Shown: positions 33,232 through 57,190 of the stretch, one piece after another | How positions within the stretch are numbered: the stretch's first letter is position 1 | How the letters are laid out: every line of letters begins with the position of its first letter | Source: Octopus vulgaris | Lineage: Eukaryota | Reading direction: 5' to 3' | Assembly: GCA_951406725.2 (NCBI GenBank) | Contig: OX597828.1 | Coordinates: 21,266,001-21,330,000 of the forward strand | DNA: 64,000 nt | Notes under the pieces: generated by a model | What the model saw: the letters and a program-made list of their open reading frames with translations, nothing else | What the model was told of the DNA's origin: nothing | Database searches by the model: none | Position numbers and translations under genes: made by a program

Positions 33232-34414
33232 AAACAAGAAATCATACCACCTAACAAATATGAAGAAGAAGAAGAAGAAGAAGAAGAAGAAGAAGAAGAA
33301 GAAGAAGAAGAAGAAGAAGAAGAAGAAGAAGAAGAAGAAGAGGAGGAGGAGAAGAAGAAGAAGAAGAAGAAGAAGAAGAAGAAGAAGAAGAAGAAGAAGA
33401 AGAAGAAGAAGAAGACACAACAAAAGCTATAAAACAAATGAAATCCAAAATAAAACTAGAACAGTAACGGACCATGATAAAACGATGTCAAGAAAAGCCC
33501 CTTCATGGCAAATACTGGACTAAACTAAACGCAAATGAAATAGACAAAGAAAAATCCCAGCAATGGTTGAGAAGCTGAGGACTCAAAGCAGAGACAGAGG
33601 GATTTTTAATTGCAGCACAAAACCAAAGCTTCCCCACCAGAAATTACCAAAAACATATAATGAAAATTAATAGTTATCGCCACACTAATATGGCAATCTT
33701 ATAAATATTTTAATATTTCTATTATATAATGAAAAGAAATATAACAAGTAACTGCAGAATATGTGGAGATTGACAAGAAACAATAAATCATATTATCTCT
33801 GGCTGCCCAGTCCTGGCTAAGAAGGAATATATTCACAGACACGACAGAGTTAGGACCTACATACACTGGAAGCTATGCCAACATTATGGAATAACAACAG
33901 AAAAAAGATGGTATAGGCACACACCAGAAAAGGTCACAGAAAACGAGAAAGCGACCATACTCTGGGATATGCCAATACACACAGACAGAGAAATTAAGGC
34001 CAACAGACCAGATATAGTTGTCAGGGATCATGAAGAAAAAAAATACTTTCTAATTGATGTATCAATACCAGCAGATGACAACGTGTCTCTAAAAGAAATG
34101 GAGAAACTTTCAAAATACAAAGACCTGGAAATCGAGGTAACTAGAATGTGGAATCTAAAAACAGAAAAATTCCTATCATAGTAGGTACATTAGGCATGAT
34201 AAAAAAATATTCAGACAAATACATAACAAAAATACCAGGACTTACAAACACATATAACATACAGAAAATTGCACTACTGGGCACTGCACACATCCTACGC
34301 AGAACACTTTCAATACAGTAACCATCAGAGCATCACGACAAATCACAGCACATACCCAAGGCACACAGAGCTGCGCTCGTAGTGAAGTGAAAGCACGCTA
34401 TAAAAATAAAACTA

Positions 34415-53096: not shown

Positions 53097-53194
<98 letters not shown>

Positions 53195-53223
53195 CGAGAA
53201 AAAAGCAACAAGAATGGATAGGT

Positions 53224-53314
53224 TTTTAGTACAATCGTTTCATACAAGGACAGGCTTTATTAAAAGTTGCAAAAATTGCAGCATATAAACGTGTCCCGTA
53301 CTCATCAGCTAAAA
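53224..53314 (-). ncRNA. mirror copy of the hammerhead in the left arm
   Basis: reverse complement of 53655-53745. Confidence 0.8.
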
Positions 53315-53654
53315 TACATGTGAGTTCTCTAGACATCCTAGTGGTTGAGGCTATACTCATGAAGTAATGTAGATAATTAAGTAACATAAACAGATTTCCA
53401 AAGTTCATTAAAGTTCTTTAAAGATGATGTACAGTCTTATCACAGAATTTTAAAAAAGTTTTAATAGCATCACAGAGAAGGTGACTTAATCCATAGTGTA
53501 CATATGAATTTCCAGAGATATTTCTGTGATAAGACTGTACATCATCTTTAAAGAACTTTAATGAACTTTGGAAATCTGTTTATGTTACTTAATTATCTAC
53601 ATTACTTCATGAGTATAGCCTCAACCACTAGGATGTTTAGAGAACTCACATGTA

Positions 53655-53745
53655 TTTTAGCTGATGAGTACGGGACACGTTTATATGCTGCAATTTTTGC
53701 AACTTTTAATAAAGCCTGTCCTTGTATGAAACGATTGTACTAAAA
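53655..53745 (+). ncRNA. type I hammerhead ribozyme, intact core
   Basis: TTTTAG-CTGATGA-GTAC GGGACA...TGTCCT t GTAT-GAAA-CGATTG-TA-CTAAAA. Confidence 0.8.
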
Positions 53746-53892
53746 ACCTATCCATTCTTGTTGCTTTTTTCTCGCTTATAATCACCCCACATTACTGTAT
53801 TGTTAAAACCGTATAGTTTGTTTTGGTGCATCTAAGTTAGGTACCATATTCAAGTAAATTCATTTAAATTAACTTGAATCTTTATTGCTTTT

Positions 53893-53981
<89 letters not shown>

Positions 53982-54004
53982 GTATATGTATATATATATA
54001 TGTA

Positions 54005-54598
54005 CACTTGTTTTCAATAATAGAAATATTTCCCACGGCGTGTTCGAAGGTTATAATGGACACAGTTTGTGTGTCAAATAGGTATGTTAAGGCGATGGCC
54101 TCATGGAGCTAATCAGCGACAGCTTTTAGTCTTATATCTATAAGACTGCCATATTAATATGGCGATAACAATTAATTTCCAGTAACGCTGCCGTAATCTC
54201 TTTTAGAGAGACTTAGTAATTTTAATATTTCTATTATTGAAAACAAGTGAATGTATTCCACCGAAACTAGGTAAATAAAACCTTCGAACAGAGACGATCA
54301 GTGGCGACACCTGCTGGGTCGACTACGCTACATTGACAAAGGGCAAATACCCTGAAACGCGTATGTAGCTGTCTGACTAGCAGTGTGAAGCGGCTGACCT
54401 CCCTTGTTCGAAGGTTATAATGGACACAGTTTGTGTGTCAAATAGCTATCTTAAGGCGATGGCCTCATGGAGCTAATCAGCGACAGCTTTTAGTCTTATA
54501 TCTATAAGACTGCCATATTAATATGGCGATAACAATTAATTTCCAGTAACGCTGCCGTAATCTCTTTTAGAGAGACTTAGTAATTTTAATATTTCTAT
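54005..54598 (+). mobile_element. retrozyme/pLTR-like element: 194-bp direct repeats (54041-54234, 54405-54598; period 364) plus 26-bp inverted 5' piece
   Basis: direct reading; hammerhead located between the repeats. Confidence 0.75.
54327..54369 (+). ncRNA. minimal type I hammerhead motif with degenerate core
   Basis: GCTACA-TTGACAA-AGGG CAAATA CCCT-GAAA-CGCG-TA-TGTAGC. Confidence 0.65.
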
Positions 54599-54672
54599 AT
54601 TTTTGTTTTTGTTTTTGTTTTTGTTTTTCCAGTTTCAGCTCTTGAGCTGTGGCCATGCTGGGGCACCGCCAT

Positions 54673-56229: not shown

Positions 56230-57190
56230 TTGAGGTTTGATGACAAGTTTCCTTAAATCTTAAGAAGCTTTTTTAGGATTCTTCCAAAATATACGAGGGT
56301 GAGTCAAAAAATAATGCCATTTTGTTTAGGACAGGTTTAATTACCAACACAGGAACATGTATCATGCATAAAAATGAAGCTGGTCCTCTGTGAATCACAT
56401 CCCTATTTCTCAACACAGTCACCGTTTCTCTCAATAGTAATGTTCCACCTTCGAATGAGAGCATGTATCCCTGTCCCGTAAAATTCTGTTGACTGTTCTT
56501 TGAGCCATTTCTTCACTACAGTTTTCACTTCCTCGTCACTGGACTATCATCTCTTCGGCCTCTTAGGCAAACATTATTCTAGTGACGAGGAAGTGAAAAC
56601 TGGAGTGAAGAAGTGGCTCAAAGAACAATCAACAAAATTCTACGGGGCAGAGGTACATGCTCTCATTCGAAGGTGGAACATTGCTATTGAGAGTAACGGT
56701 GACTATGTTGAGAAGTATGGATGTGATCTATAGAAGACCAGCTTCCTTTTGATGTATGATTCATATTCTTGTGTTGGTAATTATACCTGTCCTAAACAAA
56801 ATGGCATCACCTTTTGACACATCCTCGTAGGACGGTAATTTATGCAATCGACAAGGCAAGTTCTAATTCCAATCTCCTTCAGACTTTTTGGTAGCGTTTT
56901 AGATGTTGAGCTAAATGCACCTGTTGCCCCAGGTTTCCATAGTCTACTTAACTATGGTTAAATCCTGATTTTTCTTAGTTTTTCAATTTTCTTTGATATC
57001 GACTCAACTATCATAGGGAATTGCAAAATATAAGATCTTACACTGTATATTTTGTCCTCTATGATCATATCTGATCTTTATGTGTCAGTAGTATGGTCCG
57101 CCTATATGTCCCACAAGTTCTTGTAATTCACGCTTTCTATAACACCTTCTGGTTCGTGTTCATACCACCTTTTCTGCTACTTTGAAGATA
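56230..57190 (-). mobile_element. degenerate R4/Dong-type RLE C-terminus interrupted by the mariner MITE
   Basis: WYEHEPEGVIE..LWD; ...GRILKKLLKI* resumes on the far side of the MITE. Confidence 0.65.
56292..56829. mobile_element. mariner-derived fold-back MITE made of two inverted 3' ends
   Basis: TA-CGAGG...CCTCG-TA termini; ~250-bp inverted arms; DYHLF...RW....NGDYVEK transposase C-terminus. Confidence 0.9.

Follow-up and report, generated by a model that had tools for sequence, protein, structure and literature searches.

A 364-nucleotide unit in the genome of Octopus vulgaris is probably a young, protein-free retroelement, a non-LTR retrozyme and thus a non-autonomous Penelope-like element (PLE), which carries a predicted hammerhead ribozyme and would be copied into (TA)n microsatellites by a Penelope-type enzyme, probably from a unit-length RNA circle. 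The copy described here lies in a 64,000-nt stretch of contig OX597828.1 (assembly GCA_951406725.2, positions 21,266,001 to 21,330,000 of the forward strand), referred to below as the window and numbered from its first letter. At the DNA level every feature expected of non-LTR retrozymes is present, and the unit appears to be a new family of this known class: it is short, non-coding and multi-copy, bears a type I hammerhead motif, and is inserted as partial tandems. A retrozyme-type element had been proposed from the window copy by itself; the anatomy described for it holds, apart from a 'decayed' core, and the interpretation is supported in part.

The window copy follows a 5' target flank of (TA)n and (TATG)n microsatellite (53895-54004). 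It opens with a short inverted arm on the minus strand (54005-54030), assigned by complementarity and family comparison to unit positions 354-364 plus 1-15 and complementary at 26 of 26 positions to 54224-54249. A 10-nt filler (54031-54040) separates this arm from the next; it occurs once in the whole 64-kb window, where no source sequence for it was found. On the plus strand there follow a 5'-truncated upstream copy (54041-54234, unit 171-364), which forms the pseudo-LTR (pLTR) of a partial tandem and carries two private changes, and the full unit (54235-54598), which is non-coding, with a longest stop-free stretch of 56 codons. The resulting 194-bp direct repeats (54041-54234 and 54405-54598) are spaced 364 bp apart and differ at 54082 and 54086 (BLAST E 4e-96). 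Both the near-identical repeats and the 26-bp inverted piece had been part of the original prediction and were recovered as described. Two features set the copy apart from its relatives: most inverted arms in the family end at unit 300-308, and most arm junctions are short overlaps, unlike its 10-nt filler. Within the unit itself it departs from the family only by GUA for GUC at the cut site and by one other base. Its 3' end is unit 364, no target duplication is visible around it, and the 3' flank (54599-54672) is putatively a SINE-like end with its T-rich tail, lying on the minus strand.

A second, tiny insertion of the same family lies at 33655-33735, where an inverted and a direct piece totalling 57 bp are flanked by 12-bp target duplications (33655-33666 and 33724-33735) inside a LINE-like ORF remnant. 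The window also holds two inverted repeats of other kinds: a perfect 255-bp repeat with a 74-nt spacer (53193-53776), which adjoins the (TA)n tract and resembles a young MITE or fold-back element, and a 255-bp repeat at 88% identity (56292-56829), probably an older MITE. A tRNA-derived SINE was considered for the 364-nt unit and rejected, as no tRNA-like head with A and B boxes is present: ARAGORN reported no tRNA gene in the unit, and simple pattern searches found neither a B box nor a sense A box.

The predicted type I hammerhead occupies 54327-54369 on the plus strand, with a U3-A8 core at 54333-54339, a 4-bp stem II and a predicted cut after 54363. Its parts are stem I GCTACA/TGTAGC, core TTGACAA, stem II AGGG/CCCT, the conserved GAAA, a palindromic CGCG and the triplet GTA; stem III is thus a 4-nt palindrome of the dimer type. 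Each element of a type I hammerhead can be recognized in the motif, namely the C3/U3-U-G-A-N-G8/A8-A core, GAAA, an NUH triplet and covarying helices. Stem I is extended by a long predicted rod (54279-54416, plus strand) of -64.2 kcal/mol (z -7.5), a stability equalled by none of 200 shuffles; the fold of the whole unit has z -6.8. The longer rod capped by the hammerhead had also been foreseen, and the fold agrees with it. A search of Rfam with 54230-54600 returned no hammerhead match at E up to 10, and its other matches were only chance miRNA ones on microsatellites and inverted repeats. The ribozyme is therefore a predicted one, assigned from motif and covariation.

The TTGACAA core of the window copy had been considered decayed. 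This view is ruled out by the abundance of the core, by the absence of the alternative form and by compensatory changes. The 31-nt ribozyme core has 106 exact matches in the genome, on many contigs (reversed control, 0), while the C3-G8 form in the context of family A, in which an intact CTGANGA consensus had been expected, has none. Of 63 motifs from the young subfamily A1, 61 have TTGACAA; TTGATAA occurs in 40 of 40 motifs of subfamily A2, and CTGATGA in 26 of 33 motifs of sister family B; the triplet is GTC in 60 of the 63 A1 motifs. When 33 sequences from three subfamilies are aligned without gaps, 92% of the cells of the hammerhead are paired, compared with 24-48% in slid controls, and double changes are seen at 7 of 14 pairs. 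At the 3:8 pair, 18 sequences have U-A and 15 have C-G, with no broken pair, and the stem III palindrome alternates between CGCG, CATG and CTAG among subfamilies. These tallies count sequences rather than events, the changes amounting to few events between the three subfamilies; the compensatory changes fit a selected, dimer-type hammerhead, though with few independent events. By this comparison, the U3-A8 core is a family-wide compensatory variant and the family norm. The same variant has already been published for PLE hammerheads of Schistosoma (PMC4209133). As for cutting, eight of nine Xenopus elements are reported to show none in a 2026 preprint (10.64898/2026.07.22.740005).

Copies of the unit are dispersed in the 2.8-Gb genome. 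All 40 loci scored, out of 3,322 candidate matches, are 96-100% identical to it, and in 117 copies the departure from the majority base has a median of 1.9%. Relatives in the genome are an older subfamily, A2, about 87% identical to the unit, and, at a greater distance, the sister families B and C. Family B (L032:885-1250, L061-L090) is also older, with about 80-87% identity between copies, a canonical CTGATGA core and a CTAG palindrome, and shares with A2 the same two-end layout described below. Family C (L129:4085-4318, L270-L299) is small, with a canonical core, a 6-nt palindromic stem III and a tail region related to that of B; the weak match at L129 was at one point a candidate for a PLE's own end and proved to be this third small hammerhead family. 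Tandem copies with two hammerhead motifs on one strand do occur in the family, on 8 arms among 150 loci and also at L011. Double cleavage could not free a unit from the window copy, whose hammerhead is single; this copy is therefore probably not a source of circles but a dead end.

The ends of the insertions are not circularly permuted, as had been expected from a circular template, but fixed. This was established with 91 insertions chosen by the ribozyme 31-mer alone, which cover 99 of the 100 listed matches (106 in total). Among their 130 outer 3' ends, 68 fall at site A (unit 354-364), 56 at site B (unit 300-308; 54534-54542 in the window copy, plus strand) and 6 elsewhere, so that 124 of 130 lie at one of two sites 58 nt apart, and only the 5' ends vary, scattering from unit 1 to 352. 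Random circular permutation of the copies is ruled out by these fixed 3' ends. The 58-nt segment between the two sites (54541-54598, plus strand) constitutes a tail. The flanks are AT-only (at least 11 of 12 nt A or T) at 111 of the 124 outer A and B ends, and 53 of 136 arms cross the unit join. The 5' truncation points of this ribozyme-selected set seem clustered near predicted hairpin borders, at unit 27-50, 85-99, 163-180, 263 and 319.

The pairing of the two sites is strict. Among 150 loci, 69 insertions are two-armed and head-to-head: 57 combine A with B, one combines B with B, none combines A with A, and 11 have another end; the 91-insertion set gives 33, 1 and 0 for the same three combinations. 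Sixty of the 150 loci came from queries favouring the A end, a bias which does not explain B on the other arm. The tiny insertion at 33655-33735 likewise joins an inverted B end to a direct A end. Single-armed insertions number 73, of which 49 end at A, 22 at B and 2 elsewhere. At the arm junctions, overlaps of at least 3 nt are found in 34 of 69 cases, against 5.8% expected, an excess that is somewhat inflated, since BLAST ends gave the overlap counts and exact matches the null. Identical arm junctions recur in two pairs of loci, L224/L253 and L158/L162, the latter pair sharing its flanks as well (segmental duplicates). At non-periodic targets, duplications of 11-13 nt can be recognized (L041, L164, L218 and window 33655-33735). 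The insertions thus display what has been described for PLEs, namely a partial tandem, an inverted truncated copy, a tail and TA targets (PMC8557442, PMC3846280): fixed 3' ends, 5' truncation and partial tandems (124/130 ends, 53/136 arms), an inverted 5'-truncated copy with the tail at one end only (57/69 A+B), and an AT-microsatellite target with a short target duplication.

These ends also bear on the template. If a cleaved linear monomer had been copied, copies would stop at the cut site, unit 130; a 30-mer starting at this point shows that 0 of 71 copies begin there and that all keep upstream sequence, those nearest to the site retaining about 4-7 nt, so this template was rejected. The join between unit 364 and unit 1 is exact in 45 of 47 cases, and arms of 2 to 2.6 units exist (L011, L156). 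Divergence within an insertion is 2.2% between direct and 1.9% between inverted copies, compared with 3.9% between insertions, and non-consensus variants, rare ones included, are shared at 10-11 per kb within an insertion and 1.8 between insertions. It follows that both arms and both tandem units of an insertion would have been copied from one unit sequence. A circular template, as originally predicted, is favoured by the missing stops at the cut site, the arms of up to about 2.6 units and the variants common to an insertion, and would be the simplest source; such a circle model has been proposed for PLE hammerheads (PMC4209133). Among the sequencing records that contain the unit, none is catalogued as RNA. 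Contigs assembled from runs guessed to be RNA do span it, in one case across the cut site, and leave uncovered a unique flank that is present in two DNA-like runs, a pattern that low-coverage DNA would also give.

The strongest competitor keeps the same non-autonomous PLE and replaces the circle with a linear, uncut tandem transcript on which the enzyme makes template jumps, the hammerhead being weak or serving for end trimming. This reading is unlikely, though it has substance: the DNA footprint left by template jumps on an uncut transcript would look no different, most arms are shorter than two units (the longest in the 91-insertion set has 684 nt), and minimal metazoan hammerheads often cut poorly in vitro according to PMC4209133. 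Against it stand the arms of more than two units, and the tandem units of L029, L183 and L008, which share rare variants and would need one unit to be copied twice. Furthermore, the hammerhead has been maintained by compensatory change across subfamilies, and related retrozymes are reported to form circles in mussel, coral and axolotl (PMC7229834). A circle therefore remains the preferred template.

The likely carrier is a Penelope-type enzyme with reverse transcriptase (RT) and GIY-YIG domains, acting in trans. A survey by Pfam GIY-YIG scan and protein search yielded at least five PLE families among its top matches. Intact ORFs of 781 and 753 aa occur in many copies, with RT plus, C-terminally, a GIY-YIG domain preceded by a CxxC motif, and these PLEs end in (TA)n and carry U3-A8 hammerheads (cores TTGATAA and TTGACAA). 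The full-length 781-aa element at L139:778-5700 has a U3-A8 hammerhead in both pLTRs, 4,787 nt apart; the young 753-aa Neptune-type PLE (L330-L333, L339), whose intact ORFs are numerous and nearly identical, shares its TTGACAA hammerhead core with the unit. Two alternative ends occur in both groups: a tail of about 38 nt is present at 6 of the 22 3' ends listed for the 781-aa group, and one of about 50 nt in 1 of 4 copies of the 753-aa group, both shorter than the 58 nt of the unit. Comparison of the unit with 90 GIY-YIG PLE loci, all top matches, revealed no shared sequence beyond the hammerhead core and no shared ends, so it is the class of the carrier that we infer.

Fixed ends could also be expected if the unit were the pLTR of a coding PLE and its copies 5'-truncated or solo pLTR remnants, and indeed the ends, the tail, the inverted arms and the (TA)n targets are as in coding PLEs, the survey of which covers top matches. 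The evidence makes this origin very improbable. An autonomous PLE has an ORF for RT and GIY-YIG between pLTRs; here no ORF lies in the unit or continues it, and the sequence upstream of unit 1 is either unit 364 or unrelated flank, never an ORF. A tblastn search with the 781-aa protein found only unlinked fragments near a few loci, and head-to-tail units reach 2.6 copies. The original prediction had named fixed ends attached to a coding PLE, together with a failure to detect circular RNA, as the result that would speak against a retrozyme; the fixed ends were found, but none of the copies examined adjoins a coding PLE, so the unit is not an ordinary pLTR.

For a non-autonomous PLE copied from a circle, the following course can be suggested. 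Those few insertions in which a single arm bears two hammerheads would, by read-through transcription, yield multimers, which would cut themselves as dimeric hammerheads and be ligated into a 364-nt circle. A PLE endonuclease, to judge from the footprints, would make staggered nicks about 11-13 bp apart in AT-rich DNA. Priming would then begin from one target strand at site A (unit 364) and from the second at site B (unit ~306), both of which are AU-rich and could pair with the target; the pattern of ends is observed, and priming is the mechanism proposed for it. How far each cDNA extends round the unit would vary, its path leading past the 364|1 join and the cleavage site. The two cDNA ends would then be connected, in many cases through 2-4 nt of microhomology, or a single arm would be attached to the target. 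The outcome would be partial tandems, inverted arms in head-to-head order and, at one end, a 58-nt tail; the window copy would represent an arm of 1.5 units primed at A, with an inverted piece that is short and atypical. The more general proposal, that PLE enzymes insert circular hammerhead RNA by asymmetric twin priming, in which two nicked strands start at two fixed sites of one circle, is offered more tentatively, as an explanation with somewhat less than an even chance of being correct. The opposing proposal, made for PLEs in PMC3846280 and PMC8557442, in which the inverted arms arise by fold-back self-priming on an antisense template and the tail by endonuclease resolution of the intermediate rather than by two-site priming, could account for the atypical inverted piece of the window copy and is otherwise hardly credible, as an insertion's two 5' ends mostly lie at unrelated positions, with short overlaps instead of palindromes where they join, and as A and B each end single-armed insertions (49/73 and 22/73).

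Set beside known systems, the octopus family resembles metazoan non-LTR retrozymes in its non-coding unit of about 360 nt, low GC and single type I hammerhead per unit (PMC7229834; 10.64898/2026.07.22.740005), as well as in head-to-tail copies, target duplications above 4 bp and co-occurrence with PLEs. It differs from those described there in its dispersed insertions of 1-2.6 units rather than long arrays, in its U3-A8 core, and in its fixed two-site ends and inverted arms, which are documented here for the octopus family. For the Xenopus retrozymes, 21 matches are reported to be PLE termini (10.64898/2026.07.22.740005), whereas the octopus unit has no pLTR homologue among the 90 PLE loci. 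With Neptune-type PLEs, which have a C-terminal GIY-YIG domain, it shares the partial tandem, the inverted 5'-truncated copy, the optional tail, the TA-microsatellite targets and a target duplication of about 10 bp (PMC8557442, PMC3846280); with the hammerheads of PLE pLTRs it shares a palindromic helix III and the U3-A8 variant known from Schistosoma (PMC4209133). Unlike the PLEs of these accounts, the unit lacks an ORF, the complete element is about as long as a pLTR, and the tail measures 58 nt instead of 30-40 nt; moreover, the distance from the cut site downstream to the unit ends is 177 and 235 nt, compared with under about 120 nt in the 781-aa PLE of the same genome. Chlamys elements such as MRC1 are likewise non-autonomous PLEs that form pLTRs and head-to-tail insertions, yet, as described in PMC8557442, they resemble their autonomous partner at the 3' end and belong to a clade without canonical hammerheads.

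Twin priming by L1 produces head-to-head inversions with a microhomology joint by priming from both target strands. The octopus unit departs from this scheme in that its proposed second priming site is fixed and its arms can exceed one unit. A literature search found no description of fixed two-site priming, although the search was thin on subscription journals and is thus weak evidence of absence.

Much of the setting is already in print, including the class, the U3-A8 variant and the link to PLEs, retrozymes having been presented as non-autonomous PLEs in the 2026 preprint on vertebrates (10.64898/2026.07.22.740005); the gain lies in mechanistic detail and not in a new kind of element. The mobilization of animal retrozymes by PLEs has so far been argued mostly from co-occurrence and pLTR homology, and the route by which PLEs produce tandem, inverted and tailed insertions is described in PMC8557442 as still open, with a call for an in vitro system. 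Two fixed sites, strict A+B pairing and the lack of any stop where the ribozyme would cut are insertion statistics of the octopus family that speak for carriage by PLEs and for a circular template. As a young, short, many-copy family, it offers a small test substrate, and a 364-nt retrozyme would be a minimal one for asymmetric twin priming. The strict pairing of two fixed priming sites provides a testable account of the PLE tail and, if it is true, asymmetric twin priming alone would explain the tail, the inverted pLTR and the partial tandem of PLEs.
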